Assembly: GCA_963703985.1 (NCBI GenBank) | Contig: CAVPGH010000001.1 | Location: forward strand, 1,122,746-1,186,745 | DNA from: an uncultured Acidobacteriota bacterium | Lineage (GTDB): Bacteria > Acidobacteriota > Vicinamibacteria > Fen-336 | Direction: 5' to 3' | DNA length: 64,000 nucleotides | In this document: piece after piece, positions 10,506-37,494 of the stretch | Layout: every line of letters begins with the position of its first letter | Numbering within the stretch: the stretch's first letter is position 1 | Made by a program: the position numbers and the translations under genes | The notes under the pieces: generated by a model | Seen by the model: only the letters and a program-made list of their open reading frames with translations | Databases searched by the model: none | What the model was told of the DNA's origin: nothing

Positions 10506-10562
10506 CGCATTCGACCCCCGGACGCGATTCTACCCACGCCGTCCCCTGCGCGCAGCCCTCGA

Positions 10563-11153: not shown

Positions 11154-11194
11154 TCCGAAGAGGATAGCCGGAATAGAATGCGGACCTTCCTTCC

Positions 11195-12568: not shown

Positions 12569-12594
12569 CGGATCGCCCAGAGCGAGCTTCGGGC

Positions 12595-14684: not shown

Positions 14685-14841
14685 GGATGGGCGCACGCTA
14701 GTTCGGTTGGGGGCGGCGGTCAAGACCTCGGGCGCTTGTATGCTTCGCCGGGCCCGTCGCCTGGCGTCACGGCCGAATCGCGGGCCGAAGTTGCCTTGAA
14801 TCGCCCTCTCTGCCAAGCTCTCCGCCGCCAAGGAGGGCTCG

Positions 14842-16263: not shown

Positions 16264-16264
16264 G

Positions 16265-17305: not shown

Positions 17306-17309
17306 GCTC

Positions 17310-17341
17310 GGGCCGGCGCCGGGTGTATCCTGACGCCGGCC
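17310..17341 (+). terminator. GC-rich hairpin after the PmoA-family gene (possible terminator/attenuator)
   Basis: GGCCGGCG (17311-17318) pairs with CGCCGGCC (17334-17341); large 15-nt loop; no clear U-tract; the next gene starts at 17342. Confidence 0.25.
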
Positions 17342-20343: not shown

Positions 20344-21585
20344 ATGCCCGTGAAGCCCTTCCAGCCGCAATACATGAAGATAGGCGTGCTCACCGCCGCC
20401 CTCCAGGAGCTGACCCCGCGCGCCGTCCGCGATCCCGATCCCGACCGGGCGATCGAGGACTGGGCGGCCTTCGCCCGCAAGGTGGGTGCCGACTACATGC
20501 AGCTCTCCGCCGCCCTGCACCCGAGCGAGAGCGACGTGCCCGCGGAGGCGATGCTGGATCCCGTGGCCAACACGCTGGACCTGCGCAAGCCCTTCGACAG
20601 GGAGCGGGCGAAGAGAGTGCGCGCCGCTCTCGAGATGAACCGCCTCGGCCTCTCGGACCTCGGCTACTTCGACAACATGCTCCACGACGAGCCGGCGGTC
20701 CGCAGGAAGAAGCACGACTTCATGAAGCGGGTGATGGACGCGGCTGTCCTCCTCGGGGTGGACGCGGTCTGCGGCTTCGTCGGACGCAACCAGAAGCTCT
20801 CGATGGACCAGAACCTCGTGGACTTCGCCGAGGTGTTCGTGCCGCTCCTCCAGTACGCCAGGGAGCGGGGCCTCGTCTATCGGGTGGAGCAGTGCCCGAT
20901 GCCGGGCTGGACCACGGGCGACAACTGGCACAACAACATCGCCTACGTGCCGGGGACGTGGATCGCCCTGCACCGCATCTGCGAGAAGCACGGTGTGGGC
21001 GACCGGTTCCGGATCCACTACGACCCCTCCCACGCGATCCTGATGGGCCAGGACACGCGCTCGCTCTTCCAGTACCTGAAGGACGAGGGCTACGACTTCC
21101 TGATCGGCGGCTTCCACGTGAAGGGCCAGGTGGTGGACGCCAAGGGCGTGTCCGGGTGGGGCTACGGGGGCCAGACCGTGGAGCGGGGCGACTGGAAGAA
21201 CGGGAAACCCTCGGAGAGTCCGGCGGACCAGGTCAACGCGTGGAAGAAGCAGACCGTGCTCTGCGAGCACGAGCTGCCGGGAACCGCGAAGCACGATCCC
21301 CTCGCCTACCTCCAGAACCGCACCGTGGACTGGCTCGACCACCAGCTCGCCGCCCGCGAGCTGCTGAAGCTGGACGTGGCCAACACCCACCTGGTGGTCG
21401 AGCACGAGTACCCGAAGGCGCGCATCCAGGACGCGGAGCGGCTCGCGCCCATCCTCGCGGGGTCGATCGCCTTCACCCGGAAGATCGACGAGGCGGCTGC
21501 GTGCATGTACGCGCTGCAGCACGAGGTCCTGGCCGCCCAGGGCATTCCCGCCCAGGGCCGTGGCCGCGAGGCCTACCGGAGCTGA
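20344..21585 (+). CDS. sugar phosphate isomerase/epimerase (xylose-isomerase-like TIM barrel)
   Basis: TIM-barrel metal-site motifs ([18 protein letters not shown]); 413 aa; directly upstream of the GMC gene. Confidence 0.7.
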
Positions 21586-21594
21586 ACGGACCCC

Positions 21595-23288
21595 ATGCAG
21601 ATCGTGGCCAAGGCGAAGACGTACGACGTGTGCATCGTCGGCTCCGGCGCCGGAGGCGGCATGGCGGCCAAGGTCCTGGCCGAGGCGGGCGCCGATTGCG
21701 TGCTCCTCGAGGCGGGGCCGATGTGGGCGGCGAACAAGGACGGCGCGATGTTCAAGTGGAACTACGAGTCGCCGCGCCGCGGCGGCGGCTCGCGCCTCCG
21801 GCCCTTCGGCGAGTACGACGGCTGCATCGGGGGCTGGGACATCGAGGGCGAGCCCTACACCGTGGCCGAGGGCGATCGCTTCCTCTGGTTCCGCGGGCGG
21901 ATGCTCGGCGGGCGCACGAACCACTGGGGGCGGATCTCGCTGCGGGCGGGACCCTGGGACTTCAAGGGGAGGAGCCGCGACGGCCTCGGCGACGACTGGC
22001 CCATCGGCTACGATGACCTCAAGCCCTACTACGACCGGCTCGACGAGCTGGTCGGCCTCTACGGGTCGAACGAGGGGATCGAGAACGAGCCGGACGGGAT
22101 CTTCCAGCCGCCGCCCCCGCCACGGGCCTACGAGGGGCTCATCAAGAAGGCTTCCGACCAGCTCGGCGTTACCTGCATCCCGGCCCGGCGCTCCGTCCTC
22201 ACGAAGCCCCTGAACGGCCGGGCCCCCTGCCACTACTGCGGGCAGTGCCACCGCGGGTGCTCCACCGGCTCCAACTTCTCGACCCCGTCCGTGCTCCTTC
22301 CCCCCGCGCTCGCGACGGGACGCCTGACCCTCGTGACCGGGGCCATGGTCCGGGAGGTGCTGACGAACGAGGAGGGCCTGGCCACCGGCGTGTCGTACGT
22401 GGACACCGCCACCGGGCGCGAGCAGCAGGTGCGCGCCAAGATCGTGGTCCTTGCCGCCAGCGCCTGCGAGACCGCGCGTCTGCTCTTCAACTCGAAGTCG
22501 CCGCGGCATCCCGCCGGCCTCGCCAACTCCAGCGGCGCCGTCGGCCGCTACCTGACCGACACCACCGGCTCTCACCTGAGCGGCCACGTCCCCGCGCTCG
22601 AGGCCCTGCCTCCCTACAACGAAGACGGCACCGGAGGCATGCACGTCTACATGCCCTGGTGGCTGGACAACCGCACGCTCGACTTCCCGCGGGGCTACCA
22701 CATCGAGCCCTGGGGCGGCCGCTCGATGCCCGGGATCGGATTCATGGGCGGCATCCACCGCCTGCAGGGCGGCGGTTACGGGAAGAAGCTCAAGGACGAC
22801 TATCGCCGGCTCTACGGCTCGTTCGTCGGCTTCGCCGGCCGCGGCGAGATGATCCCCAACAAGGACTCGCTACTGCGAGATCGACCCGCGCGTGGTGGAC
22901 AAGTGGGGGATCCCCGTCCTGCGCTTCCACTGGAAGTGGTCGGACTACGAGCTCCTCCAGGCCCGGCACATGCAAGAGACGTTCGTCCGCATCATCGAGG
23001 CCATGGGGGGCAAGGTGATGGGCGACGTGCCCGGCCGGGCCGAGGAGTACGGCCTGAAGGTCGGGGGCGAGATCATCCACGAGGCGGGCACCACGCGCAT
23101 GGGCACGAGCCCGCTGCACCTCGGTCCTGAACGAGTGGTGCCAGGCCCACGACTGCAAGAACGTGTTCGTGGCGGACAGCGGGCCCTTCGTCAGCAACGC
23201 CCACAAGAACATGACCTGGACGATCCTCGCCCTCTCCATGCGGACGAGCGAGCACATCGTCGAGGAGCGACGGAAGGGGAACCTCTGA
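21595..23288 (+). CDS. GMC-family FAD oxidoreductase (glycoside 3-dehydrogenase-like catalytic subunit); two apparent +1 frameshifts
   Basis: N-terminal FAD motif [23 protein letters not shown]. Homology continues in a second frame from about 22866 ([19 protein letters not shown]...) and a third frame from about 23120 ([56 protein letters not shown]), matching the intact paralog at 58014-59708. Stop TGA overlaps the next gene's ATG. Confidence 0.7.
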
Positions 23289-23943
23289 TGAGCGAGATCG
23301 CACGACGTTCGGCCCTGCGCCTGATCGGGGGCGCGCCCCTCGCCGCGGGCTTCGGTCTGGGCGGGGGCGGGGGCGGCGCGGCGCCGGGGAGCAGGCGGCG
23401 AAGGCGGTGGCCGCCTCCCGCCAGGGCGTCGTCTACAAGCCGAGGTTCTTCACCGCCCACGAGTGGGAGACGGTGCGCGTGCTCGTGGACCTGATCCTCC
23501 CGCGCGACGAGCGGTCGGGCAGCGCCACCGACGCGGGCGTGCCCGAGTTCATGGACTTCTTCCTGACCGATCCCTACGAGGACGATCGCTCCCGCGAGAG
23601 CCGCCAGACCGCGATGCGGGGAGGCCTCGCCTGGATCGACGCGGAGTGCCGGCGCCGCTTCGGGGGCAAGGACTTCACGGAGTGCGCGGCACGCCGAGCA
23701 AGCCGCGCTCCTCGACGACATCGCCTACTGGAAGGGCGACGAGGAGGACGACCGGGCGATGCGCGACCGGGGCCCGCACGTCCTCCTGCGCCACGGCCCC
23801 AACTTCTTCAATTCCTTCCGGGACCTCACGGCCTCGGGCTTCTGGAGCAGCAAGATGGGCGTCGAAGATCTCGGCTACAAAGGCAACACGTTCGTCGTGG
23901 AGTTCCAGCCCCCGCCCGCGGAGGTCCTGCGCAAGCTCGGGCT
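23288..23943 (+). CDS. gluconate-2-dehydrogenase subunit-3-family small subunit (Tat signal), frameshifted
   Basis: [25 protein letters not shown] twin-arginine signal, then a frame change to ...AKAVAASRQGVVYKPRFFTAHEWETVRVLVDLILP..., and another to ...EQAALLDDIAYWKGDEEDDRAMRDRGPHVLLRHGPNFFNSFRDLTASGFWSSKMGVEDLGYKGNTFVVEF. No stop before the downstream DUF1080 ORF. Confidence 0.55.
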
Positions 23944-24694
23944 CGTGGTCGCGCTCGTCGCCTTCCTGGGGCCGGCGGCGGTTCGCGCCGCCGACGTCGG
24001 CAACTGGCCCATCCACGACCGCACCCGTCCCGCCCCGAAGGCGGTCGATCCGGGCACCGCCAGCACGCAGGAGCAGCCAGGCAAGCCGCCCTCGGACGCG
24101 ACCGTGCTCTTCGGCGGGAAGGACCTCTCGCTCTGGAAGTCCAAGAAGGACGGCGGCCCCGCCAAGTGGAAGGTGGAGAACGGCTACATGGAAGTCGTGA
24201 AGGGAACGGGCTACATCGAAACGGCCCAGGGCTTCGGCGACTGCCAGCTCCACGTGGAGTGGATGGCCCCTTCGCCGCCGGTGGGCCAGGACCAGGACCG
24301 CGGCAACAGCGGCGTCTTCCTGATGGGCCAGTACGAGGTGCAGGTGGTCGACTCCTATGAGAGCGCGACCTATCCCGACGGCCAGGCCGCGGCCCTCTAC
24401 GGTCAGTACCCGCCCCTCGTCAACGCCTCGCGTCCGCCCGGCCAGTGGCAGACCTACGACATCGTCTTCCACGCGCCGCGCTTCGACGCCGAGGGGAAGG
24501 TGACGCGGCCGGCGCGGGTGACCGTCCTGCACAACGGGGTGCTCGTGCAGGACGACGCGGAGCTCACCGGCCCTACGGCGCACAAGGCGCGCCCGCCCTA
24601 CACGGCCCACCCCGCGAAGCTGCCCCTCGCCCTGCAGGACCACGACCACCCGGTCCGCTATCGGAACATCTGGGTCCGGGAGCTGGCGGAGTAG
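23944..24694 (+). CDS. DUF1080 (3-keto-disaccharide-hydrolase-like, laminin-G jellyroll) protein
   Basis: Putative GTG start giving signal peptide VVALVAFLGPAAVRAADV; WKVENGYMEVVKGTGYIETAQGFGDCQLHVEW...NSGVFLMGQYEVQV...LPLALQDHDHPVRYRNIWVRELAE is characteristic of DUF1080. It is in frame with the upstream small-subunit ORF without an intervening stop. Confidence 0.65.
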
Positions 24695-24741
24695 GAGCCG
24701 CAGATACCGTCACGCGGGAGGGCTCGGCCGGAGATCGAGCG

Positions 24742-25964
24742 CTAGCGCGGGGTCCGCGCCGCCGGCCGCGCCTGCGCGGACCGCTTCTCGATCAGGAACG
24801 CCGCGAGGTCGGCCATGTCGCCGGGCCCGAAGCGTGGCCAGAGCACGCCCAACTTGCGCGATTCCTCTTCCATTTTCGGCGCGTGGTTCCACATCGCCGC
24901 GATGATGGCGATGGGGTCGTCGAGCTGGGGCACCTCGGCCAGGTTCGGCCCCAAGGCCGCGGCGGTGTGGCACCGCGAGCAGCGTTCCTCGAAGAGGCGG
25001 GCGCCGCGAGAGGGCGTGCCGCGAACGTCGGCGTAGTTCACGAAGTAGAGGTAGGCGATGATGTCCGCCATCTGCTCGCCCGAGAACTTGGTGTGGCTGA
25101 TCCCGCGGCGGGCGAACTCCGCGACCATCCCCTGGCCGTGGTTCCACATGACGCCGGCGATGGCCGATACCGAACCGATCAGCTCCCGGCGTCGCGTCCC
25201 GAGCTCGGGGCCGCCCCGGCCGCCCGTCCCGCCAACCGAGTGGCAGGCGTCGCAGCGCTTCGCGGCGAACAGGTCACGACCGCGCCGCGGGCTGCCGGGC
25301 TCGAAATACACGGGCTCGGCGCGACCCCACGTTGCCTGCCTGCAGGTAGCCGAGCAGGTCGCCCATCTCCCGACCCGCGAACCTGGGCCAGGGGATGCTC
25401 TGTCCCCGCATCAGCTTGGCCATCTCGGGCCCATGGTTCCACATCGCCTGGGCCAGGAAGATGGGCGAGAAGCGCCCCCGGTAGCGGTCCAGGCTCGGCC
25501 CGGGCTTGTCCCAGGAGTCGCCGCCTCCGTGACAGCTGCACGCATCCCTTGGAGACGAAGACGGCATGGCCCGCCGCGGGATTCGCCGGCTCCCCGACTT
25601 CGGTCAGGTAGTAGCGGTAGGCCGTGAGGAAGGCGACGAGGTCGGCCATCTCGCGGCTCGTCATCGTCGGCGCGGGGATCTTGAGGTCCTGCATCTTCTC
25701 CCGCATCACCGGAGAGTGGTTCCAGAAGGCGCCGGCGATGTCGAGCACCGTCCCCGTCAGGTGAATGCGTCCGAGGTCGGGCCCGACGCGCGCCTCCTCC
25801 CCGCCCAGCGAGTGGCAACGGACGCAGGCCTTCGTCACGAAGAGCCGCGCGCCGGCCGTCGGGTTGTTCGGCAGCTCGACCGAAAGGCGCACCGAGGGCT
25901 CCTCGGCCGCCGAGACGACACTCAGGCCGAGCAGGGCCACCGAGCCCAGGAGCCGGGCGCGCAT
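24742..25964 (-). CDS. c-type cytochrome of four tandem homologous monoheme domains (frameshifted)
   Basis: Signal peptide MRARLLGSVALLGLSVVSAAEE. Four repeats each carrying G.RLF...C..CH (CVRCH, C.SCH, CDACH, CSRCH), (A/V)xWNHxPxM, and MADLxAFL. Reading-frame changes at about 25570 and about 25320; the ATG overlaps the NrfD stop (TGATG). Confidence 0.6.
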
Positions 25965-27274
25965 CAGGCACCCACCTCGGCCATCTCTGCACCGGGGTGG
26001 TCGGCCCGCGTCCTGCGGCGCCGCCTCCTCCAGCTCCCAGATCGAGATGATCGGAAACAGCTTCGTGAACCCCATGTACAGCAGCGCGAAAGCCGCAAAG
26101 CAGCCCGCCATCAGCGACCACTCGACCCAGCTCGGCGCGTATCCGAAGCCGTGGATCGGCGCCCGCGGGTTCGAGAGCGACGGCACCACGATCGTGAAGC
26201 GCTCGAGCCACATCCCGATGTTGACCGAGATCGACGCCACCACGGTCCCCGCCACCGTGCGCGTCTTGTTGTTGGCCAGGATCACGAACGGGATCACGAA
26301 GCAGAAGACGAACATCGCCCAGAAGTAGGGGGCGAAGTGGCCCGAGAACTTGGCGTCGAAGACCGCGATCTCGTTGGGCTCGTGCGCGTACCAGGTCGTC
26401 AGGTACTCCGCGAAGGTGAAGTACAGCCACAGGCACGCCATCACGCAGCAGCAGCAGCCCGAGGTTGTTGAAGTGGATCGGCTTGCAGGTAGGCCTCGAG
26501 CCGGTACACCTTCCGGACGATCACCATCGCCGTGATGATGGCCGCGATCCCGGAGAAGATCGCCCCGACCACGAAGTACGGCCCGAAGATCGTGGAGTGC
26601 CACATCGGCTGGATCGTCATGGCGAACACCCACGACACCACGGTGTGCACGGAGACGGCGATCGGAATCACCAGGATCGCCATCACGCCGATGGCTCGCT
26701 CGAGGCGGTGCCATTGCTGCGGCGTGCCCGTCCAACCGAGCGACAGCCGTCGCGTAGAACCGGTGGCGCCAGCCTCGCCGTCCGATCGCGCAGCAGCGCG
26801 ATGTCCGGGATCAGCGGGCAGGTACAGGTAGAGGCTGCTGGCGGTGAGATAGACGCTGATGCTGGCCACGTCCCACAGCAGCGGCGAGCGGAAGTGCGGG
26901 TGCAGGATGACGTTCAGGGCGCGATCCGGCCGCCCCAGGTCCAGCAGCACGTTGCCGACGCCGAAGAAGAGCACCAGGACGGTGATCACCTCGGCCATCC
27001 GCGTGATCGGCCGGCGCCACTCGGCCTGAACGATGCGCAGGATCGCCGAGATCAGCGTCCCGGCGTGAGAGACGCCGATGAAGAAGACGAAGTTGGTGAT
27101 GTAGAGCCCCCAGTACACCGGCCGGCCGAGCCCGGTGGCTCCGAGGCCATGGATGAGCTGCCACGACCAGGCCATGACCGCCCAGGCGACCACGGCCGCC
27201 AGGCCGAGGGCCCATCGCCTGAAGGAAGGCCCCGTCGTCAGGACCGGCTCGAGGATGGCCGTGCTCTCCCTGCA
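25964..27274 (-). CDS. NrfD/PsrC-family integral membrane quinone-interacting subunit (frameshifted)
   Basis: Pieces in three frames: PSFRRWALGLAAVVAWAVMAWSWQLIHGLGATGLGRPVYWGLYITNFVFFIGVSHAGTLISAILR... and ...LWLYFTFAEYLTTWYAHEPNEIAVFDAKF...GMWLERFTIVVPSL...: polytopic NrfD-like. ATG at 27274 is 2 nt after the FeS-gene stop. Confidence 0.65.
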
Positions 27275-27276
27275 TG

Positions 27277-27956
27277 GCTACTCGCCCTCGCGCAGGTAGA
27301 CCACCTTGGGTCGCGTGCCCAGCTCCTCCATGAAGCGGAAGGCGCGTGCGCTCTCCACCAGCGGGGCGACGGGGTCGTGCGGATCGTCGAGATCGCCGAA
27401 GACCAGGGCCTCGGCGGGACAGGTCTGGACGCAGGCCGGCACGTAGTCGTCCGGCGCCAGCTCGCGCCCCGCCGCGCGCGGCGCGCTCGCGTGCCAGCAT
27501 CAAGCGGTGATGACAGAACGTGCACTTCTCGACGACGCCCTTGGGCCGCACCGACACGTCCGGGTTCATCATCGAAGCCATCGACTCGGGCCACTCCGGC
27601 GTGGTCCAGGTGAAGACCTTGACGGCGTAGGGACAGGCGTTGGTGCAGTAACGGCAACCGATGCAGCGCGGATAGACCTGCGCGACGATGCCTTCGGGGT
27701 TCAGGTAGGTGGCGCTCGTCGGACAGACGTCCACGCACGGCGGCCGATCGCAGTGCTGGCACATCAGCGGAAGCACGGCGGCCCCGGCGCGGCCCGGCAC
27801 CTCGGCCGGCACGAGCTGCAGCCAGGTCATGAGGCGGCCCTCGGCCGCGACCTCCGGCATCGAGAACGGCACGTTGTTCTCGTGCTTGCAGGCGACCACG
27901 CACGCCTGACAGCCGGTGCAACGGTCCAGATCGACGACCAGGCCCCAGCGCGACAC
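27277..27956 (-). CDS. 4Fe-4S ferredoxin-type subunit (PsrB/NrfC/ActB2-like), one frameshift
   Basis: GTG start with AGGAGG RBS; four Cys clusters (CTGCQACVVACK, CQHCDRPPCVDVCP, CIGCRYCTNACP, CTFCHH); after about 27460 the C-terminus continues in another frame (ELAPDDYVPACVQTCPAEALVFGDLDDPHDPVAPLVE...VVYLREGE*). Confidence 0.75.
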
Positions 27957-27966
27957 GAGATGCCTC

Positions 27967-30181
27967 CTAGGCGCGCGTGACGCGCACCATCAAATCCCCG
28001 CCGACGGGCGACGTCGTCCGCGAGCAGGCGCAGGTCCGAAGCGATTTTGCGCGCCCAGCGACCGCTCCCCGGGACGGCCGGCACGAAGGCGAGCGCGACC
28101 GAGTCGGCGGGCATCTTCTCGACCAGGACCGCCACCGCCTCCACCGCGCCCCGCGGCGAGACGATCCGGATGCGGGCGCCCGCCCCGACCGCCAGCGCGC
28201 GCGCGGTCTCGGGGCTCAGCTCGGCCCAGGCCTGCCACGGCGCGCCGTCCGGCTGGCCGAGCAGCTCGAAGAGCGCGGGCTGGTTGGGGCTGCCCCGGTC
28301 GGTGACGAGGGCCGGCTTGAACGGAACGAGGCGCAGGGGATACTCGGCGGCCCCGACCCGCGCCGACGAGCGCCCGGCGGCCGCTTTCGCCAAGGCCACG
28401 GCCGGCGATGAAAGGCGCAGGCCCGCGCGGGCGCGCAGCGATTCACGGACCCGCCCCGGGGTGACGTACGGGTCGGCCCAGCCGCCGGCCTCCACCACCG
28501 CCGCGGCGAACGCTTCGCGGGATGGCGCCGGGGCGACCCACCAGCCGCCCTTTTCGAGCTGCCGCACCCATTCGGTTTCGTAGAGGTCCGAATAGGGAGC
28601 GCCGCGCCTCAGGCCACAGAGCCGCTCCAGCTCGTCGTGAACGACGTCGTCCGAGGCCGTCCATGGGCACGCGCCGGCGAGCGGCTCGCCCGCGCCGACC
28701 GCGACGTCCTTGAGCAGAGAGGCCGCGTCCTTCGTGGACAGCAGCGGCTTGACGGCCGGCTTGGCGATGGCCACCGCTTCGAGGGCAGCGGCCTGAGCCG
28801 GCAGCGTGGCGTGCCAGCTCTCGAGAGCCGTGTGCGTTGGCATCAGCAGGTCGGCGATCGCCGCGGCTTCGTCGAGGAAGGGGGAGAAGCTCACGACGAG
28901 GTCCGTCGGCCGCAGCGCCGCCCCCAGGTTGCGCGGCGATGCCAGCGCGCGCAGCGCCGAGGCGTCCCGGAAGGCCAGGATCGCGGGACGGATCCGGCCC
29001 TCGGCGACCTCCCGCAGCGTCGTCGTCGCGTCTTCCACCTCGGCGGCCGGGCGCCGGGGCGCGCAGGTCACGCCGCCCGCCCGGTCGAACGCGCCGATGA
29101 GCGCATTGAGGGCGAAGACCGCCTCGACCAGGGAACGGTCGGCATCCGCCGCCACCACCGCCAGCGGTCTGGCGCTGCTGGCCAGCTCGCGGGCCAGCCG
29201 GAGCACCGTCACCACCGGCACACCGGTCACCGAAGCGACGTCGTCGGGCGTGTAGTTGGCGGCCACCTCGCGCTCGAAAGCGGCGAGGTCGCCCCCCAGG
29301 TCGTCGAGGAACGCGCGGTTGACGCGGTTCTCGCGCAGCAGGACGTAGGCGATGCCGTAGGCGAGCACGGCCTGCCTTTCGGAATGGACCGCGAGCCACT
29401 CGTCGGCCTTGCGCGCCGTCATCGAGCGGCGGGGCTCGATCTGGACCAGCCTTCCCCGCGCGCCGGATCCGCGCCGGAAGCGGCCGTAGCTGCGCTGGGT
29501 CCAGACTCCCGACAGCCAGTCCTCGGCGACCGGCGCGCCGAACGACAGCACGTAGCTGGCGTGCTCCAGGTCGAAGAGCGGATCCGCGGAGACGCCGGTC
29601 AAGGCCCGGAAGGCAGGGCCGAGCCGGGCCGCGCTAGCGGCCCGCGTCCACACGACCCGGGCGCCCGCCGCCGTCCAGAAGCGCGTCCAGGCGTCGGCCA
29701 AAGGCCCCTCTTCTTCGGAAGCGAGGGCAAGCACGCCTTGGCGCCCACCGCCGGCATCCCGCAGTCGCGATGCCAGGAGGGCGATCGCGGCGTCCCACGT
29801 GATCGGCTCCCACTGCCCTTCGCCTCTCTTCCCCACGCGTCGAGCGGGGCCCACCAGACGGTCGGGGTCGAAGTAGGACTCGAGCGATGCCTGGCCCTTC
29901 GCGCACAGCCGCCCGCGCGAGACGGGGCAGAGCGGGTTGCCCTCCAGCTTGACCGGCGCGCCGTCCATCAGCCGTACGCGGATCCCGCAGGCCGCCGGGC
30001 ACTCGCGACAGACGCTCGTGGCCCAGCTCTCGACGCCTCGTCCCCGCCAGCCGGCGGCGCGCTCGTCGGCGCGCGCGAGCTGTCGACGGCCCAGCTCCCC
30101 GAGCGTGATGCCGGCGAGGGTCGCGCCCCCGTAGACCAGGAAGTCCCGGCGGCTCAGCGATTGGTCGCTCATCGATGGCAC
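27967..30181 (-). CDS. molybdopterin-oxidoreductase-family catalytic-like subunit (PsrA/ActB1-like), Tat-exported
   Basis: MSDQSLSRRDFLVYGGATLAGI Tat signal; N-terminal FeS motif CRECPAACGIRVRL...CPVSRGRLCAKGQA; about 735 aa. The ORF-track frame runs on to 27827, but the likely true end is ...GDLMVRVTRA* in another frame (stop at about 27967) just before the FeS-gene RBS. Confidence 0.75.
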
Positions 30182-30651
30182 GCCGCGCAGTCCTGGCTGG
30201 CGCCCTCACGCTTGTGGCAGTCGAGACAGGCGTTCATATCCAAGCGCATCGGTGGGCGCCCGGGCGGCACGGCGCTCGTCCCCACGTCCGCGTGGCACGA
30301 CGCACACTCGAGCCGGGCGAGGCCGACGTGGCGCCGGTGAGAGAACATGACGTGCTCCGGGAGATGGGAAACGCGCAGCCAGGCGATCGGCTGGGCGCGC
30401 CCGGCCTCGTCCCATTTCACCCCCGCCGCGGCCCTCGGAGCCGTGGCGTGGCACTTCAGGCACACCGCCGCCTCGGGGATGCCGGCACGGGCTTGCTCAA
30501 AGGCGCCGCGGTGGCAGACGCCGCAGCCCATCCCTGCATGCCGGGCATGGTTGAAGGCGACAGGCTGGGCGAGGGGCGCCCGCGGCAGCAGCAGCATCCA
30601 TGCGCCGGCCACGGCCAGCGTCAGCGCGGCGAATCGAAGCAATCGGCCCAT
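30169..30651 (-). CDS. pentaheme c-type cytochrome (NrfB/ActA-like)
   Basis: Signal peptide plus five CxxCH motifs (CGVCH, CLKCH, CASCH, CLDCH, CAACH) in 160 aa; overlaps the Mo-subunit start by 13 nt. Confidence 0.75.
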   Translation of the reverse strand: MGRLLRFAALTLAVAGAWMLLLPRAPLAQPVAFNHARHAGMGCGVCHRGAFEQARAGIPEAAVCLKCHATAPRAAAGVKWDEAGRAQPIAWLRVSHLPEHVMFSHRRHVGLARLECASCHADVGTSAVPPGRPPMRLDMNACLDCHKREGASQDCAACHR

Positions 30652-30663
30652 GAGGGAAGCGGC

Positions 30664-31077
30664 CTAAAGGCCGGGTTTCGCCGCCGCCTCTTTGAGCTTC
30701 TTGTCGTAGAGCTCCTTCTTGCGGATCTTCGAGTCGTACACGACGAACTCGAAGATCTGCTTGCCCTCGTCCGGGCTGATGAAAGTGCCCGCCTTGCGCA
30801 TCATCCTCTTGATGTAGCGCTCCCACTCGTCGTCGAGGACGAATTCGCAGTTGATCGCGCGGGCCGGCGTGTGGCACTTGCTGCACTTCGTCAAGAAGAC
30901 CTTGTAGCGGGCCTTCATGTCTTCGGGGTACTTGGAGACGTCGATCTTGGCCGGACCCTTGTCATACGCGAGGATCCGCGGATCGACCGGCTCCTCCTTG
31001 TCCTGGGCCACGATCTTCAGGGCGAGCGCCGCGAAGGCCAGCAAGACAAGCGCGGTGACCGTAACGGTACGTGTCAT
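30664..31077 (-). CDS. monoheme c-type cytochrome, secreted (lysine-rich, lower GC)
   Basis: Signal peptide MTRTVTVTALVLLAFAALALK; single CSKCH; GC visibly lower (about 60%) than the flanks. Confidence 0.6.
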   Translation of the reverse strand: MTRTVTVTALVLLAFAALALKIVAQDKEEPVDPRILAYDKGPAKIDVSKYPEDMKARYKVFLTKCSKCHTPARAINCEFVLDDEWERYIKRMMRKAGTFISPDEGKQIFEFVVYDSKIRKKELYDKKLKEAAAKPGL

Positions 31078-31093
31078 GTCGGAAGCTCCTCCT

Positions 31094-33793
31094 CTAGAAG
31101 TTCAGGATGTAGGACACACCGAAGATGCTCACCCCGTAATTGAACGGCTGCTCGTTGGTCGGCAGCACGCCGCTCAGCGACCCGAGCTGCATGCCCTCGT
31201 AGGCCGGGTCGTTGGATCGCATGCGCAAGTACGAGTAGTCCAGGCGCACCGACTGGCGCTTGTCGATCGCGAATCGGCCGCTCAGGCGCAGCTCGCCCGT
31301 GTTGGTGGTGATCGTCGGCATCGGGGCGCCCGCGATGAAGAACGCCGCGATGGTCGTCGGAGGCCCGCCCGGGCCGTTGAGGATGTTGTTGGCCCAGTTT
31401 CCGCCCGCCGCTGCGCTGGTGTCCGACCGCGCGCGGGACAGGATCAAGTTGCCCAGAAGGTCGAAGCTGCCGGCCCGCTTCCGCAACCCGACGCCCACCG
31501 TGTGCACCTTGTCGAGCATGTTCGTGGACCAGTCCAGGCACGGGTCCAGCTTGTTGTTGTTGTTCCGCTGTTGCAGCGTGGTGTAGCCGTCGCAGCTGTT
31601 GCCCGAGAGGCCGACCGCCCCTGGCTGACCGTTGTTCAAGGCGGCCACGTTGCTGTTGGCCGTATAGCTGTTGCCCGCGCGTCATGGGAACTGAAGTTCT
31701 CGTACGTGTAGCAGACGTTCACGCTCGTGGCGTCGCCCAGCGCGTAGGTCCCGTCGACGTTCACGGCCCAGTTCTTTGCGTCCTGAACGCCGTAGGTCGA
31801 GCCGGGGTAGCGGTCCTTGTTGAGATCCAGGCCGCCCTGGAACGACAGCTGCTCGGTTGCCTGCCAGCTGAGCAACGCGCGCAGCTTGTCTCGATTGCGA
31901 TCCGCCACGTAGTAGCGGCGCATCCCCGGAAGCTCGCTGATCCGGTTGTTGTTGGCGTACATCGCGTTGGCCAGGGCGTTGTTGCTCGGGAAGAACAGGT
32001 TCATGTTGCCGGTGGTGACGGCGAAGCCGGCCGCAGGTCCCCATCCGTTCCAACCGTTCGCCTGCATGAACGAAAGAGCGGTCGCGCCCCCGGTCGCCGC
32101 GGCCGGGCTGACGTTGGCGTACGGGACCAGCGCCAGGAAGGCGTTCTCGTTGTAGTCCGGCGCTCTGCGCGCGGAATACGCATAGCCGACCCGGGCGGTG
32201 ACCTTCTCACCCAGCGTGCGCCCGCCATTCGGCCCGCAGCGTGTGCTCGTTGGTCGTCGCCGCATCCGCGCAGCTGATCCAGGACGCGAAGCAGGCGCGG
32301 TCGATCTTCTCGAACTCGTAGCCGACCTTGATCCACTGGCCCTTCACGAAGCCGTAGTCGGCCTCGGCGGTGACCTGATTGAGCTTCCTGCTGTACGGAC
32401 GATTGGCGTTTGCGTTCTGTGCGACAACGGCGCCGAGAGGATTGTTGGGGCCGGCGGGGAAATTGGCGTTCGCCGCGGGCGCTTCGCCGGCGTCCGCGTA
32501 CTGGTAGATGTTGACGGCGGTGCGGTTGTCGCGGTCGTCGTACCTGTACGCCGCGGTCAGGGTCAGCTTCTTTGCCGGCCGGGTCGTGAATCGGCGTTGA
32601 ACGTCGTGGTCACGACGAGGCCGTCCAGCGAGCTGACCGGCACCACCGGCGTCGTCGCATCGGTCAGGAACGCGTCGTTCTGCGTGTTGCGTCGCGTACG
32701 ATCCGGTCGCGACCAGCTTGGTGGTCGAGCGAGAAGTTCATGCCGCCGGTCGCGTTCCACTGGTTGAAGGTGTTGCCCGGCGTGCTGCTCATGGTGTTGA
32801 CCGACCCTCGTGGGGGTCGCCCAGTTCTGCCACGACATGAACGGCACGTTGTTCTTGAAGAACGAGCCGTAGTACCCGGCCTGCGCGAAGCTCTTCGGGC
32901 CCGTGAAATTCAGACTCATGGCGACCTGGTTGTGATCGGTGTCGATCACATCGGGAATGATGGTCGAGATGTCGGCGCCGGTGTTTCGAGAGACCGTCCC
33001 CATCGGCTTCACACCGTCCTTGTGCTCGGGCCGGAAAGTCACGTCGACTCCCCAGCGCTGGTCGAAGTTGTAGTTGAGGCCGACGTCGAACCTCGTGCGC
33101 TTCGTGAACAGGTTGAAGTTGTGGAACAGCGGCACGTCGGCGGCCGCGGCGGCGTCGACGAGCGCCGTCTGGGCCGCGTTCGGCGTTCGCAACGCGCCCA
33201 TCGCCGGCGAGTTCGTCGCGACGTCGATGTAAGGCGCGTCGCCGATCGCCGGGATGAGGCCTCGCGCGCTGACGATGTTCGTCGTGTTGTTGGTGCCGCT
33301 GCTTCCGGCCACCGTCGGTACGATGCCAGGATCGCGGCAACGTGAGGACGTTCGTCCCCGTGCCGTTGAACGGCGTCTGATACGTGTCCGATCGGTTCCG
33401 GCGCAGCTCGTCGTAGCCGAACGTCAGCCGGAACTTGCCCTGCTGGCCGATCTGGGCGGATGCATTCGCGATCTCGAGGCCGAGATCGGTGCCCTTGATG
33501 CGCCACCGCAGCGTGCTGTCGCTGTTGTAGCCGGCGGCGCCGCCGCGCCAGTCGAGGTTGCCGATGCCGAACGCGCCCTTGTTCTCGAGGCCGTTGTATT
33601 CGCCGGCCTTGTAGGACCCGTCGCCGACGGTGCCCGCGCCGACTTCGACCGTGCTCGTCGGCTTGGTTTGGGCTTCCGCATGGGCAGCGTACGCGCGCCA
33701 GCGCCGCCGCGAGCGCGACTCGAGCGACGGCCACGCGAGCCCGGGTAGGCGAATTCGCTGTGCGTTTGTCATGACATCGCTCCCTGATCGCAT
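31094..33793 (-). CDS. MtrB/PioB-family outer-membrane porin (decaheme-associated beta-barrel), multiply frameshifted
   Basis: About 900 codons spread over at least three frames (ORFs 32789-33793, 32563-33312, 31636-32265, 31094-31648). Recurring beta-strand, Gly/Asn/Tyr-rich composition and the motif GYDELRRNRSDTYQTPF; terminal YILNF aromatic C-terminus; lies immediately downstream of the decaheme cytochrome. Confidence 0.55.
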
Positions 33794-33797
33794 CGGG

Positions 33798-34824
33798 TTA
33801 GCGCTGGAACTTCGCGCCGGCCGGGTGATTCGAGCCGTGAATCAGCACATGACAGTTCAGACACGCGCGCGCGCCCGCCTGGGCGCGCGGCGCCGCCGCG
33901 CCGGGCTGCTGAAGCCCGTTGATGGTGGTCACGTCGCCGACCGCCAGGTTCGCACCGCTGTTGACCTGTGCGCCGTGGTCGCCGCTGTGGCACTCCTGGC
34001 ACAGCCACGGCGCGCGCGCCTTGAGCAGCGGTGCGTTGCTCGAGCCGTGCGGCGTGTGGCAGTTGGTGCAGTCGTCCGAGACCGGCGCGTGCTCCCAGAG
34101 GAACGGGCCGCGCTTCTCGGGATGGCAGGTGAAGCAGGTCTCGTTGACCGAGTTCTTGACGAGCATCTTCGGACCGGTCGACCCGTGCGGGTTGTGGCAG
34201 TCCGAGCAGGCCATCTTGGCGGCGCTGGCCAGGCTGGTCACCGCCAGCGGATGGGTCGAGATGCGCCGCGTCTGCGCGCGCTGCGCCTTGTGGCAGGTGA
34301 AGCAGACGTCGGCCTGGGTCGCCTTGCTCAGCACCTTCTGTTCGGGAGCGTGGATGTTGTGGCAGTCGGTGCAGGCGACGCCACGACCCTCGTGCTGGCT
34401 GGCCGGTCCAGTAGGAGCGCAGGCCGGCCTCGTGGCACGACAGGCACTTGGCATTGCGTTCGGCGACGGGCGAGGCTTTCCGCCCCTTGTACACGATGCC
34501 CACCGGATTGCTCGTGACGGCAATGTGGTCGGGACTCGCCCCGTGACACGTTTCGCACAGGTGCTGGGCGAACGGCGTGCGCTGATCGCCCTTGACGGCG
34601 TGCGGCGTCTGGAGGATCAACGTGGTCGGCTCTTGGTTGTGGCACTCGCGCAGGCAGGTCTGCACGGGATTCGGCGCGTACTCCGGCGGTCCGGGCGCGG
34701 GCGCAGAGGTCGGCTCCTGGTCGGCGCGCGCCGGCGCGGTCGCGACGGTGAGCGCGGCGAGGACCAGCGCGCCGATGTGGGCAGCGTGTCTTTGGCGTTG
34801 CACGGAACGGGCGCGGATTGACAT
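33798..34824 (-). CDS. decaheme c-type cytochrome (MtrA/MtoA/PioA-like), one frameshift
   Basis: ATG at 34824 with AAGGAG RBS; signal peptide MSIRARSVQRQRHAAHIGALVLAALTVATAPARA. Hemes 1-3 (CLRECH, CETCH, CLSCH) are in one frame. Hemes 4-10 (CTDCH, CFTCH, CSDCH, CFTCH, CTNCH, CQECH, CLNCH) are in the frame of ORF 33798-34523. Total ten CxxCH in about 340 aa. Confidence 0.7.
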
Positions 34825-34859: not shown

Positions 34860-35312
34860 TCACCGCCACTTCTCCGCGGCCCCGGACTTCGGAAGGAGGC
34901 TCATGAGGTGCTCGACCAGGTCGGTCAGCTCCGCGTCGGACATCTGAGCGCCCCAGCCGGGCATCCTGTACGGCGGCCGCGGACCTTTCGCGTCCTCGCG
35001 GCCGATCGTCGCCAGGCCATCGAGGATCTTCTTCTTCAGCTCGGCGCGCGTGAACCCCTCCGCCACGAACGTCAAGCCGGGCACTTTGCCGTCTGTCTCC
35101 GCGTTCCGGTTGGCGAACCCGCCCTTGGCGTCGGCGCCGTGGCACAGCCCGCACCCGTAGCGCTCGTAGACGCGGCGGCCGCGTTCCGGAGCGGCCTCCC
35201 GGCCCGCGTCACGGGGCACGGCGCGAACGATACGGGGCAGCGGCGTCCGCGTCTGGGCCCAGGCGGCCATGCCCAGCAGGACCAGCAGCGCGAACGGGAG
35301 CAGCCGCCTCAC
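34860..35312 (-). CDS. monoheme class-I c-type cytochrome, secreted
   Basis: Signal peptide MRRLLPFALLVLLGMAAWAQ; CGLCH; 150 aa. Confidence 0.65.
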   Translation of the reverse strand: MRRLLPFALLVLLGMAAWAQTRTPLPRIVRAVPRDAGREAAPERGRRVYERYGCGLCHGADAKGGFANRNAETDGKVPGLTFVAEGFTRAELKKKILDGLATIGREDAKGPRPPYRMPGWGAQMSDAELTDLVEHLMSLLPKSGAAEKWR

Positions 35313-35369: not shown

Positions 35370-36851
35370 TTAATCCAGCGAGGACGCCGGGTCGGCTTGG
35401 GGGGCCGGCTGGGAAGGGGGCGATCCGGCCCCCTCGGGCGCACTTGGCAGGTAGACCGCGAAAGTGGACCCCCGGCCGGGGACGCTGGTGAGCTTGATGG
35501 TGCCCCGGTGCAGCCGCACGATCTGCTCGACGATGGCGAGACCGAGGCCGGAACCGCCCGTGTCGCGAGCACGCGCCGGATCCGATCGGTAGAACGGCTC
35601 GAAGATGTGGGGCAGATCCTGTGGCTCGATCCCACAGCCGTGATCCACGACCATCACCATCGCGTGGCCGTGGGGCCGCCCAACGGTCACGACGACGTTG
35701 GACGCGGCCGGAGAATAGCGGATCGCGTTCTGGAGCAGGTTGAGCACGACCCGCCGCAGGTGGAGCGGGCTGCCGAGCACCAGGGGGCGGCCCTGGATGG
35801 ACGTCTCCACCACCACCTGTTTCTCCTCCGCCATGGCGCTCGCGATCTCGCAGCACTCCAACACGAGCTCGGCCAGGTCCACGCCCTCGGCCACCTCCAG
35901 CATCTGACCTCGATCGGCCAGGGCCAGCAAGCGCAGATCACGGATCAGCGTCGACAGGCGCTCGGTCTCCTCGAGCAGGCCGGCGGCGAGCGCGCGGTAG
36001 TCGGTCGGAGTCCGATCCGCGCGCAAGCACAACTCGACGGCACCGCGCATCGCGGCCAGCGGCGTCTGCAGCTCGTGCGACGCGTCGGCCGCGAAGCGGC
36101 GGGCGCTGCGGAGCGATCCCTCGATCCGGTCGAGCATCTCGTTGAGGGTCGTGGCCAAGCCGTCGATCTCGTCGCTGCCGGTACGCGCCTCGAGCCGCTC
36201 GTTGATGTGGGCCGATTGGATCAGCTGGACCCGGCGCACGATCTCGTCCACCGGGGCCAGCGCCCGGCGCGCGGTGAAGGCGCTGCCGTAGCTCGCGAGC
36301 ACCAGCACCACCACGATGGACAGCACCATCCCGAGGGCCAGGCGGACCTGGTCGCGGCGCACCGGCTCCACCGAGGCCGCCAACTGCACGATCAGGCTCT
36401 CCGCTCCCGGTCGTGGGACCACGGCCGTCGCGACCCGTAGCGGGGCTCCCGAGATGTCCGCCACGGTGATGAGCGGCGTGCGCTCGCGGACCGCCGCCGC
36501 GGCCGCGCGCTCGCTCGCCCAGTCCAGCCGCGGGAACCCCCGCGAGCGGAAGAGCACCGGTCCGGACGCCTGGCGCACGAGCACCGGCGCCTCCGCCGCC
36601 ACCTCGCTCGCGAGAACGCTTGCCACGTCGAGGGTCAGCAGAGCCGCGCGGCGATCCGCCACGAACCCGAGCAGGCGCACTTGCAGCTCGCGATCGAGCT
36701 CGTGGTAGGAGGTCCGCGCCTGGCTGACCAGGACGAACACGGCCAGGGTTCCGAGCGCGCCGCTGAGGGTGAGCAGGTACCAGAGCGTCAGGCGGGTGCG
36801 AAGGCTCCTAGGGCGAAGTCGAGCCAGGATCCCCAAGGACATACCCCACAC
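35370..36851 (-). CDS. sensor histidine kinase (CusS/CzcS heavy-metal-sensor-like)
   Basis: Two TM helices with periplasmic loop, HAMP, H-box ASHELQTPLAAMRGAVE, and HATPase G-boxes (DHGCGI, GGSGLGLAIV). Confidence 0.8.
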   Translation of the reverse strand: MWGMSLGILARLRPRSLRTRLTLWYLLTLSGALGTLAVFVLVSQARTSYHELDRELQVRLLGFVADRRAALLTLDVASVLASEVAAEAPVLVRQASGPVLFRSRGFPRLDWASERAAAAAVRERTPLITVADISGAPLRVATAVVPRPGAESLIVQLAASVEPVRRDQVRLALGMVLSIVVVLVLASYGSAFTARRALAPVDEIVRRVQLIQSAHINERLEARTGSDEIDGLATTLNEMLDRIEGSLRSARRFAADASHELQTPLAAMRGAVELCLRADRTPTDYRALAAGLLEETERLSTLIRDLRLLALADRGQMLEVAEGVDLAELVLECCEIASAMAEEKQVVVETSIQGRPLVLGSPLHLRRVVLNLLQNAIRYSPAASNVVVTVGRPHGHAMVMVVDHGCGIEPQDLPHIFEPFYRSDPARARDTGGSGLGLAIVEQIVRLHRGTIKLTSVPGRGSTFAVYLPSAPEGAGSPPSQPAPQADPASSLD

Positions 36852-37494
36852 CGCGGACGGCCACTATCAGGCTGGGCCGCCCGGGAACGTCGAGCTTCTC
36901 GCGCAAGTGCTTGACGTGAACGTCGACCACGTTGCTCCCGGGATCGAAAGTGCAGTCCCACACGTGCTCGGCGATCATGGCCCGAGTCAGCACGACACCG
37001 GACCGCCGCATGAGGTACTCCAAGAGCGCGTACTCCCTCGGGGTGAGGGCGATCAGCCGGCCGGATCGCTTGACGGTGTGCGTCGCGGGATCGAGATCCA
37101 GGTCCCCGGCGGTGAGGACCGGCGCTTCCGTGACGCGGTGGCGCCGGCTCAGGGCGCGCAGGCGCGCCGCCAGTTCCTCCAGCGCGAACGGCTTGACCAG
37201 GTAGTCGTCGGCTCCCGCATCCAGCCCACGGACGCGGTCCTCGACCATGTCCCGCGCCGAGATGATGAGGATCCGGGTCTTGTTGCCCGCCGCGCGAAGG
37301 CGCTTGCAGACGGTCAGGCCGTCGATGCCGGGCAGCATCAGGTCCAGCACGATCGCGTCGTAGTCGTAGGTGGCGGCCAGCTCCAGAGCGCTCGGGCCGT
37401 CGTGTGCGACGTCGACGGCAAACGACTCCTCGGCGAGCGCCCGACAGATGTAGTGCGCCATGCGCCGCTCGTCCTCGACGACCAGGAGCCTCAA
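36808..37494 (-). CDS. OmpR-family response regulator (CusR-like)
   Basis: Receiver MRLLVVEDERR...DLMLPGIDG...wHTH VRGVGYVL; the likely TTG start at 37494 restores the receiver N-terminus (the ORF-track start 37581 is too far upstream). Confidence 0.75.
   Translation of the reverse strand: MRLLVVEDERRMAHYICRALAEESFAVDVAHDGPSALELAATYDYDAIVLDLMLPGIDGLTVCKRLRAAGNKTRILIISARDMVEDRVRGLDAGADDYLVKPFALEELAARLRALSRRHRVTEAPVLTAGDLDLDPATHTVKRSGRLIALTPREYALLEYLMRRSGVVLTRAMIAEHVWDCTFDPGSNVVDVHVKHLREKLDVPGRPSLIVAVRGVGYVLGDPGSTSP

Follow-up and report, generated by a model that had tools for sequence, protein, structure and literature searches.

A likely four-subunit relative of alternative complex III and Qrc in an MtrAB-encoding operon of Vicinamibacteria

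What does a molybdoenzyme-like protein do when it is encoded next to a pentaheme cytochrome, and where do its electrons come from? The question is raised by four adjacent genes in a 64,000-nucleotide stretch of DNA (the window; ~69% G+C) from an uncultured soil bacterium of the Acidobacteriota (Vicinamibacteria, lineage Fen-336; assembly GCA_963703985.1, contig CAVPGH010000001.1, positions 1,122,746 to 1,186,745). The genes, at 25964–30651, encode a pentaheme cytochrome c, a molybdoenzyme-like subunit (B1), an iron-sulfur subunit (B2), and an NrfD-family membrane subunit. An earlier note on this DNA described them as a hybrid of polysulfide reductase (Psr) and alternative complex III (ACIII), with B1 as either a genuine molybdoenzyme or a scaffold for electron transfer. 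These four genes (the module) belong to an operon of nine genes, of which they form the inner half; among the other products of the operon are MtrA/MtrB-type proteins and monoheme cytochromes. We consider it reasonably likely that this operon serves extracellular electron transfer, with the four genes as its inner-membrane half, and that they encode a minimal, four-subunit relative of ACIII and Qrc. Most likely, this complex couples menaquinone to an exchange of electrons outside the cell, which is probably the oxidation of Fe(II).

All four genes are at the positions given in the earlier note and on the minus strand, as are the other five genes of the operon. The operon begins with a 150-amino-acid monoheme class-I cytochrome c with a signal peptide and a CGLCH motif (cytc150; 34860–35312), a decaheme cytochrome of the MtrA/PioA/DmsE family (33798–34824; 341 amino acids, with nine CxxCH motifs and one CxxxCH), and an outer-membrane beta-barrel porin of the MtrB/PioB family (31094–33772; ~889 amino acids). 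These are followed by hyp137, a secreted or anchored monoheme protein of 137 amino acids with a CSKCH motif (30664–31077); the ActA/QrcA-like pentaheme cytochrome c (30169–30651; 160 amino acids, five CxxCH motifs); B1 (27967–30172; 734 amino acids); B2 (27278–27956; 225 amino acids); the ActC-like, quinone-interacting NrfD subunit (25964–27275; 434 amino acids); and a periplasmic protein with four tandem class-I cytochrome c domains (24742–25964; ~407 amino acids, four CxxCH motifs), after which the operon ends. The genes are tightly packed, with ATGA and TGATG overlaps and gaps of 3–10 nt. As the earlier note reported, the ATG of B1 overlaps the stop codon of the pentaheme gene (as ATGA), and B2 has a GTG start behind AGGAGG: the TAG stop of B1 (27969–27967), which follows the C-terminus ...DLMVRVTRA, overlaps AGGAGG, and GTG comes 7 nt later. 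(This C-terminal tail is in a different frame from the body of the raw B1 reading frame.) The B2 open reading frame (ORF) from 27956 begins MSRWGLVVDLDRCTGCQAC and carries 4Fe-4S dicluster domains. The start of the four-domain cytochrome gene overlaps the stop of the NrfD gene. Within the module, the Pfam families Molybdop_Fe4S4, Molybdopterin, Fer4_11, and NrfD match far beyond chance, and the raw molybdoenzyme-like ORF (30181–27827, 784 amino acids) has Molybdop_Fe4S4, Molybdopterin, and Molydop_binding domains. A scan of the operon for sigma-70 promoters and terminators found nothing exceeding the shuffled expectation, the operon has no dedicated chaperone gene, and tblastn found no paralogue of any cluster protein elsewhere in the window.

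These gene models hold only once inserted bases are taken out. We located close relatives by protein search and compared their contigs with the window. Frame jumps were first seen by tblastn, and insertions were called by nucleotide alignment to two relatives: an NCBI metagenome-assembled genome (MAG) from Vicinamibacteria (L001; 87% amino-acid identity) and a JGI metagenome contig (L002; 91%). In both relatives the genes are intact, with 734, 225, and 434 amino acids for B1, B2, and NrfD and 409–412 for the downstream cytochrome. In the window, nine single-base insertions break the module: one in B1 (at ~28005; the raw ORF consequently extends to 27827), one in B2 (at ~27479), and seven in the NrfD gene, which in raw form is a set of fragments spread over several reading frames. 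So the product that the earlier note assigned to 27967–30181 is a real gene, but that span crosses a frameshift, and the corrected gene is 30172–27967. Outside the module, the MtrA gene has a 1-nt insertion at ~34406, the MtrB gene has about twelve insertions of one base along with a few further small indels, and the four-domain cytochrome gene has one or two frame-shifting single-base events. Altogether, ~27 single-base insertions, judged against intact relatives or paralogues, lie within a contiguous block of ~11.6 kb (22850–34410) and break at least eight genes. The block also spans an unrelated GMC oxidoreductase (21595–~23290) and its partner with a Tat signal (~23290–24000). Large genes outside the block are intact and are matched by Pfam models from end to end. 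(Counting frameshifts with a hidden Markov model (HMM) of GC3 phase was too noisy alone, so we relied on the Pfam matches in the flanks and on the ORF list instead.)

After correction, B1, B2, and NrfD have exactly the lengths of their intact orthologues, there are no internal stops in 3,290 codons, and dN/dS relative to L001 is 0.13–0.33, alike in frameshifted and unbroken genes. The frameshifts look like a local assembly artefact, from an unpolished long-read or gap-filled stretch, rather than gene decay, because the events are almost all insertions, there are no nonsense mutations, constraint is normal, the affected block is contiguous, and the relatives are intact. A decaying array of pseudogenes, with real frameshifts and a non-functional system, would fit the sheer number of frame-breaking indels between 22.85 and 34.4 kb next to intact flanking genes. 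But nearly all of these are 1-nt insertions, mostly outside homopolymers, and they extend over the GMC oxidoreductase and its partner as well. Given these observations, the absence of internal stops, and the normal dN/dS, we rejected pseudogenisation, which seems highly implausible, and we treat the corrected models as genes.

The operon structure is conserved. Taking one genome per species, we found the core (hyp137, pentaheme, B1, B2, ActC-like subunit, and four-domain cytochrome c) in 22 MAGs from Vicinamibacteria or other Acidobacteriota. Most of these loci also have cytc150 nearby, and in most, MtrA and MtrB of one of two lineages adjoin the core, sometimes inverted. The hyp137 gene lies directly upstream of the pentaheme gene in all 22. 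As the earlier note had it, the molybdoenzyme-like, iron-sulfur, and NrfD proteins are separate genes beside a pentaheme gene: B1 and B2 are split in 22/22 loci by a stop codon and a gap of mostly 6–24 nt (up to 270 nt). We rejected the idea that the split is a mere frameshift of a fused actB, as the stop, the ribosome-binding site, and the start are conserved in intact relatives. When L001 and L004 are compared with L002 and L003, the core genes are ~90% identical, but MtrA and MtrB are of two very different lineages (identities to the window of 91% versus 38% for MtrA and 88% versus 24% for MtrB). Because the core is so similar while the MtrA/MtrB lineages diverge, the outer-membrane module seems to be swapped separately from the inner-membrane core.

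In other relatives, the outer-membrane protein is of a different type. MtrAB is replaced by a Cyc2-type protein of 415–430 amino acids in three loci (L005, L007, and L008), and a Cyc2-type gene accompanies MtrAB in two more (L013 and L016). Neither Pfam nor NCBIfam has a Cyc2 model, so we identified Cyc2 by the published motif AxPxFAR[Q/K][T/Y]...CxxCH...PxL, which defines this fused cytochrome-porin iron oxidase (PMC8406198). The proteins from L005, L007, and L008 have a signal peptide, the sequence A(M/V)P(V/A)FARQ(F/Y)GVKCSTCH(S/T)PVPPRL, and a C-terminal aromatic residue. Cyc2-type genes (about 395–435 amino acids) are in or beside the cluster at 7791–9077 of L005, 3058–4305 of L007, and 3701–5008 of a more distant locus, L035; the motif is at ~799 in L008, ~7647 in L013, and ~15629 in L016. 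The window itself has no Cyc2 gene.

Similar linkages appear around more distant B1 proteins. L035 has a 34%-identical B1 in a cluster of hypothetical, pentaheme, B1, B2, and NrfD genes, with a small cytochrome c and a canonical Cyc2 a few kilobases away. In L034, from a Deltaproteobacteria MAG (6903–18340), a 37%-identical B1 is in the same core of cytochrome c, pentaheme, B1, B2, NrfD, and cytochrome c. After the L034 core come genes for a haem-free OprO/P-like porin, for a PSCyt1 protein, and for a multiheme protein that exceeds 1000 amino acids and has collagen and MtrC/MtrF-like domains; this may be another type of outer-membrane conduit. In contrast, L026–L030 (MAGs from Planctomycetota and Myxococcales; 26–28% identity) have a different gene order, with an iron-sulfur subunit (bearing the Tat signal), then NrfD, then the molybdenum subunit. 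In L030 (7642–12319), the molybdenum subunit keeps a Cys ligand (HSNLCDTARKA) and pterin-type motifs. By their sequences L026–L030 look like true Psr-like enzymes, and we used the L030 subunit as an internal comparator for B1.

We then examined the outer-membrane conduit and the carriers. The corrected MtrA scores 279.8 bits against TIGR03508 (above the cut-off of 192.2). Raw fragments of MtrB match TIGR03509, and its orthologue in L001 (88% identical) scores 361.9 bits (above the cut-off of 240). The two genes are adjacent in the window. Neither the operon nor the related loci encode an extracellular cytochrome of the MtrC or OmcA type, as in PioAB and MtoAB. The hyp137 protein has no match in Pfam or NCBIfam. 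It has 868 homologues of about 135 amino acids, nearly all of which are unnamed or "hypothetical" (a few are labelled "cytochrome c5" by JGI); among the best 120 of these, identities are 66–92%. The CxxCH motif is invariant in the family. Its AlphaFold2 model is all-alpha and, in a Foldseek search of the PDB, had no match with E <1. We conclude that hyp137 represents a new, previously undescribed family of monoheme proteins.

For the inner-membrane subunits, we compared the sequences with the solved ACIII structures from Rhodothermus marinus (PDB:6F0K), Flavobacterium johnsoniae (6BTM), Roseiflexus (6LOD), and Chloroflexus (8K9E). The best matches of the pentaheme cytochrome in the PDB are the four ActA chains (1e-14 to 3e-18); its score against the QrcA model is 69 bits (cut-off 180). 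Its N-terminus is hydrophobic and is an anchor or a signal. The NrfD subunit matches ActC from R. marinus (6f0k_C) with E = 3.7e-71 and 244 bits over nearly its whole length (residues 25–419, aligned to 56–457 of ActC). It also matches the three other solved ActC chains, its similarity to ActF is much weaker, and its score against the QrcD model is only 52 bits (cut-off 570). Asp169 of ActC is conserved. For B2, the best match is residues 796–1023 of ActB (8e-57), and the B2 domains of ActB (8e-57 to 4e-45) rank above ArrB and PsrB; the best NCBIfam model is QrcC (270 bits, under the cut-off of 400).

B2 has no signal peptide. Its 16 cysteines form full motifs for four clusters of the [4Fe-4S] type. 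The third motif is CIGCRYCTNACP, at the site of CIGTRYC in ACIII. CIGCRYC(T/A)NACP is invariant across the 22 related loci, and four more distant, Psr-like loci also retain CIGCRYC. The four-Cys site predicts a [4Fe-4S] cluster and hence, if the motif is a good guide, a wire of lower potential.

Does B1 carry a molybdenum cofactor? B1 has a twin-arginine translocation (Tat) motif, SRRDFL, and the FS0 motif CX2CX3CX27C (Cys55, Cys58, Cys62, and Cys90). The earlier note had pointed out both, and both are conserved: among 119 full-length homologues, the twin arginines are found in 119 and each of the four cysteines in 118–119. Because of this conservation, B1 almost certainly keeps the FS0 [4Fe-4S] cluster. 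The cofactor is another matter. B1 lacks the conserved Mo ligand that is expected on the loop behind the GSPN anchor, whether Cys, Sec, Ser, or Asp. In a profile alignment, the SVC of ArrA (with the ligand Cys193) aligns to an insertion that has no counterpart in the B1 family, and the arsenate-binding residues Arg165, His189, and Ser190 are not conserved. When B1 is aligned by BLASTP to the Cys-bearing subunit of L030, a 2-residue gap falls exactly on the LC. Two other segments of the L030 protein, PIRPxTD and STHTHTRTQNN (in domain IV), are not conserved in the B1 family either. Across the 119 homologues, positions 176–182 of the loop are variable small residues, with Thr180 in 91/119. Since B1 has no counterpart of ArrA's ligand-Cys loop and does not conserve the active-site residues of Arr, it is most likely a scaffold or an electron relay that retains FS0, and not a catalyst. 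If the four genes are indeed an ACIII/Qrc relative, the Mo cofactor is quite probably absent, judging from these alignments.

Comparisons to protein families are in keeping with this. The best family HMM for B1 is QrcB in all 12 members that we tested (about 243 bits; cut-off 440). Scores were 181–189 bits for PhsA (cut-off 694), 127 for ArrA (cut-off 1600), and about 63 for TtrA (cut-off 1750), and the module did not group with any characterised Psr or Ttr operon of identical gene content. An AlphaFold2 model of B1 (from a 12-sequence alignment; low confidence, with a pLDDT of 66) recovered only the generic fold of enzymes with molybdenum-bis-pyranopterin guanine dinucleotide (Mo-bisPGD) when searched against the PDB with Foldseek; Nap, Arr, and Psr were at TM of about 0.47, with ActB of ACIII lower, and this search does not discriminate between a catalytic and a cofactor-less B1. 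We also searched 1.84 billion cluster representatives. The whole B1 family of Vicinamibacteria is one 50% cluster, and the score then drops from 861 to 438 bits. The next ~140 representatives have no informative names, nearly all of them have all four cysteines of FS0, and the ligand-loop segment is free of Cys in 99 of 142 aligned sequences (the nearest representatives). The nearest out-groups (34–42% identity) are MAGs from Deltaproteobacteria, Aminicenantes, and Dadabacteria. Because the representatives keep FS0 while 99/142 lack a loop Cys, B1 belongs, by sequence, to a large radiation of homologues that bear FS0 but mostly lack the ligand Cys. Otherwise, ActA-type and ActC-type partners are known only with cofactor-less B1 or QrcB (PMC6303296, PMC5928083).

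How does this module relate to known complexes? Like ACIII, it has a pentaheme ActA-like cytochrome, a B2 that is nearest to the C-terminal domain of ActB, an NrfD protein that is nearest to ActC, and a Tat-exported B1 with the molybdoenzyme fold but no Mo ligand; in both, the subunits are periplasmic and the quinone site is in the NrfD protein. But in ACIII, ActB is a single fused polypeptide, and its B1 part has no prosthetic group (PMC5928083), whereas here B1 and B2 are separate genes and the FS0 cysteines are kept. Where B2 has CIGCRYC, ACIII proteins have CIGTRYC or CVGTKYC, giving a [3Fe-4S] cluster; this FeS1 cluster has a potential of +140 mV and is adjacent to the quinol site (PMC5928083). 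Also, there is no ActD, ActE, or ActF, nor is there a second NrfD or a two-helix ActD-like gene in the operon, and the cluster is encoded with MtrAB instead of an oxidase. With ActB split, FS0 present, four cysteines at the FeS1 site, and no ActD/E/F, we rejected canonical ACIII.

Qrc (QrcABCD) has the same gene order of cytochrome, molybdoenzyme-like, iron-sulfur, and NrfD subunits, with four separate genes (PMC6303296) and with Tat export of QrcB. QrcB and QrcC are also the best NCBIfam models for B1 and B2. However, all four Qrc scores given above fall under the equivalog cut-offs. QrcB lacks a redox cofactor, as has been found experimentally (PMC6303296, PMC13059093); QrcA is a hexaheme cytochrome, and QrcC contains a [3Fe-4S] cluster (PMC13059093, PMC8076601). 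Here, FS0 is kept, there are five hemes, and B2 has a four-Cys motif. The membrane subunit is of the ActC type and not the QrcD type, and QrcD is listed as restricted to Deltaproteobacteria (Calisto and Pereira, PMC8076601). Unlike the Qrc of sulfate reducers, the module is in a different phylum and has no hydrogenase or TpIc3 nearby. We rejected canonical Qrc because of the missed cut-offs, the retained FS0, and the five hemes.

The closest published description is the act cluster (actAB1B2CDEF) of neutrophilic iron oxidisers (Gallionellaceae and Zetaproteobacteria), whose B1 has CX2CX3CX27C (Kato et al. 2015, PMC4643136). The split of ActB is shared and the spacing in B1 is exactly identical. 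Also, a role between the Cyc2, Cyc1, or Mto cytochromes and the quinone pool was proposed for that cluster. There, actC is followed by actD, actE, and actF, while here the NrfD gene is followed by the four-domain cytochrome c; also, hyp137 is added, the outer-membrane conduit is in the same operon, and the host is an acidobacterium. PsrABC, PhsABC, and ArrABC are likewise encoded by separate genes, their A subunit has a Tat signal and FS0, and their B subunit has four full Cys motifs; also, ArrA and PsrA are the best sequence matches of B1 among solved structures. But B1 lacks the ligand-Cys loop and the substrate residues, it scores far under the family cut-offs, the membrane subunit is of the 10-helix ActC type instead of the 8-helix PsrC type, and there is an additional pentaheme cytochrome. 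We rejected membership in Psr, Phs, Arr, or Ttr given the low scores and the missing Mo-ligand loop. Finally, the Mto and Pio systems (MtoAB-MtoD-CymA/ImoA and PioABC) likewise combine an MtrA/MtrB-family decaheme and porin, without MtrC, with small class-I cytochrome c carriers and a quinone-reactive component of the inner membrane, in one cluster. There, the inner component is a NapC/NirT-type tetraheme quinol dehydrogenase, or a HiPIP leads to a reaction centre; here, it is an ACIII/Qrc-like complex of iron-sulfur and NrfD subunits.

Overall, the "Psr/ACIII hybrid" of the earlier note is a fair label, as ActA-, B2-, and ActC-like subunits are combined with a Psr/Arr-like FS0 and a four-Cys motif. 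But Qrc and the split-ActB clusters of iron oxidisers are precedents for this architecture, and the complex is not a new class of enzyme. What is new is the combination: FS0 is kept, FeS1 has a four-Cys site, ActDEF are missing, there is a new monoheme subunit, and the module is linked to MtrAB or Cyc2 in operons of Acidobacteriota. In full-text searches, we found no paper that reports, for Vicinamibacteria, an ACIII/Qrc-like module joined with a cluster for MtrAB or Cyc2. Baker et al. described acidobacterial MtrCAB clusters, without a nearby quinone oxidoreductase (PMC8805035).

We propose the following mechanism. B1 and B2 would be exported jointly via Tat, with B2 hitch-hiking on the signal of B1 because B2 has no signal peptide of its own. 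They would dock onto the ActC-like subunit, a 10-helix protein that would bind menaquinone close to the periplasmic face. The pentaheme cytochrome, anchored at its N-terminus, would contact B2 as ActA does in ACIII, and monoheme carriers would bridge to the MtrA decaheme within the MtrB barrel. The path that we infer for electrons thus connects the MtrA/MtrB conduit, the monohemes (cytc150, hyp137, and the four-domain cytochrome c), the pentaheme, the iron-sulfur wire, and the quinone site. We lean towards inward flow, from extracellular Fe(II) or reduced minerals to the menaquinone pool, because Cyc2 can take the place of MtrAB, no MtrC is present, the carriers are class-I cytochromes, and the iron oxidisers offer a precedent. 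Inward delivery might be paid for by the proton-motive force, through ActC. A low-potential wire with only [4Fe-4S] clusters would suit the reduction of menaquinone better than the high-potential [3Fe-4S] cluster of ACIII. The same wiring would also permit reverse flow.

Several points weigh against this reading. Among solved structures, B1, as a single sequence or as a 12-sequence profile, is nearer to ArrA (6e-42) and PsrA (4e-35) than to the B1 domains of ACIII (5e-20 to 1e-7). In the NrfD subunit, the quinol-site residue Asp253 of ActC is replaced by Val, and the region around His139 differs. In arsenite oxidase, Mo-bisPGD has no protein ligand; because of this, sequence analysis cannot prove that B1 lacks a cofactor, and our case for its absence is drawn from sequence. 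The family also retains FS0, all 16 cysteines of B2, and the Psr/Arr-like motifs FGAP..E, NALxGxxDRxGG, and ADLLLP, all of which would suit a working molybdoenzyme too. MtrAB conduits are reversible. Described isolates of Vicinamibacteria are known as aerobic heterotrophs. The link to Cyc2 is a matter of gene neighbourhoods in relatives. And the genes in this window do carry frameshifts.

Some of these points would be explained if B1 were a genuine Mo/W-bisPGD enzyme, with a non-canonical ligand or none, whose active site is fed or drained by the cytochromes and MtrAB; it might be a reductase like Psr, Phs, Arr, or Ttr or a new oxidase. The Tat signal, the recovered fold, and the prevalence of Thr180 fit such an enzyme as well. 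But the ligand-Cys loop is deleted or variable, the substrate residues of Arr and the STHTHTRTQNN-type motif are lost, the best HMM describes the cofactor-less QrcB, the scores for Phs, Arr, and Ttr are 4- to 25-fold under their cut-offs, and most of the nearest sequences have no Cys in the ligand-loop segment even though they keep FS0. The ActA-type and ActC-type partners and the lack of a chaperone gene in the operon point the same way. Of the two possibilities in the earlier note, then, the scaffold is favored, and the genuine molybdoenzyme is improbable. We give somewhat less credence still to one specific version, in which B1 would bind Mo- or W-bis-pterin without a protein ligand, by analogy to arsenite oxidase, and the clade would be a new catalytic class of complex iron-sulfur molybdoenzymes. 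If that were so, the quinone pool and, via c-type cytochromes, MtrAB or Cyc2 would both be connected to an active site, perhaps that of a periplasmic metal or metalloid oxidoreductase, and this would apply to a widespread clade (Vicinamibacteria and relatives at 30–40% identity in several other phyla). Another possibility is that the module is an ordinary aerobic ACIII that feeds a terminal oxidase and is near MtrAB by chance. Besides the similarity of ActA, B2, and ActC, the four class-I cytochrome c domains encoded downstream recall the coupling of ActE or caa3, and 86% of the Acidobacteria species surveyed have ActC/ActF genes (PMC8076601). However, this is very unlikely: no oxidase genes are adjacent, ActD/E/F are absent from the operon and a second NrfD from the window, B1 and B2 are split with FS0 and the four-Cys site, MtrAB or Cyc2 is repeatedly linked to the module, in 20+ species, and even B1 modules of 34–37% identity are beside Cyc2 (L035) or a porin and an MtrC-like cytochrome (L034).

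The remaining alternative to inward flow is that the complex is a menaquinol dehydrogenase, like CymA, that sends electrons out through MtrAB and so reduces Fe(III), Mn(IV), or humics outside the cell. Metal reducers use homologues of MtrAB, and heterotrophy in the described isolates would fit with this. ACIII is itself a quinol:cytochrome c oxidoreductase (PMC5928083), and Acidobacteriota MAGs with porin-cytochrome complexes have been proposed to be metal reducers (PMC13264449). Yet, as with PioAB and MtoAB, an extracellular cytochrome of the MtrC/OmcA type is lacking, and the carriers in the periplasm, like MtoD and Cyc1, are monoheme cytochromes of class I. Also, Cyc2, which swaps with or joins MtrAB, is validated only as an Fe(II) oxidase (PMC8406198), and iron oxidisers characteristically have a split ActB that bears FS0 (PMC4643136). 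We therefore consider outward flow less likely than inward flow, though it is a serious rival.

Other genes flank the operon. A two-component system sits ahead of it: a sensor histidine kinase with HAMP and HisKA domains (35370–36851, minus strand; the ORF is intact) and an OmpR-type response regulator (36808–37494, minus strand). The regulator is conserved upstream of the cluster (its orthologues have Pfam's Response_reg and Trans_reg_C domains), is 90–91% identical to its orthologues in L001 and L002, and is free of frameshifts (by tblastn). Beyond it are two paralogous large Ser/Thr protein kinases with PD40/beta-propeller repeats (37757–40546 and 45552–48446, minus strand; 929 and 964 amino acids). 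On the other side, a set of genes that resembles a sugar dehydrogenase adjoins the operon on the opposite strand (20344–24694, plus strand). It includes the GMC oxidoreductase, the small subunit with a Tat signal, a putative xylose-isomerase-like TIM barrel, and a DUF1080-like protein (the last two identified by eye). A second, intact paralogue of the GMC oxidoreductase (46% identity) is at 58014–59708 (minus strand).

What do these results imply? In neutrophilic iron oxidation, the role of ACIII-like complexes has been called "highly speculative" (PMC4643136), because the act genes of the model iron oxidisers are not linked to outer-membrane oxidases. In this bacterium and about 20 related species, the genes for an ACIII/Qrc-like quinone module are next to those for an MtrAB-type conduit, and a homologue of Cyc2 is in or beside the cluster in five related loci and one distant locus. 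This linkage provides comparative-genomic support for such an inner-membrane partner and defines a compact set of genes for it. With its retained FS0, a B2 with only [4Fe-4S] motifs, and a new monoheme subunit, the module is also a natural variant for probing the iron-sulfur wire of ACIII-type complexes. Finally, it suggests that the Vicinamibacteria, an abundant group in soils and in the subsurface, join in the redox cycling of iron and manganese.

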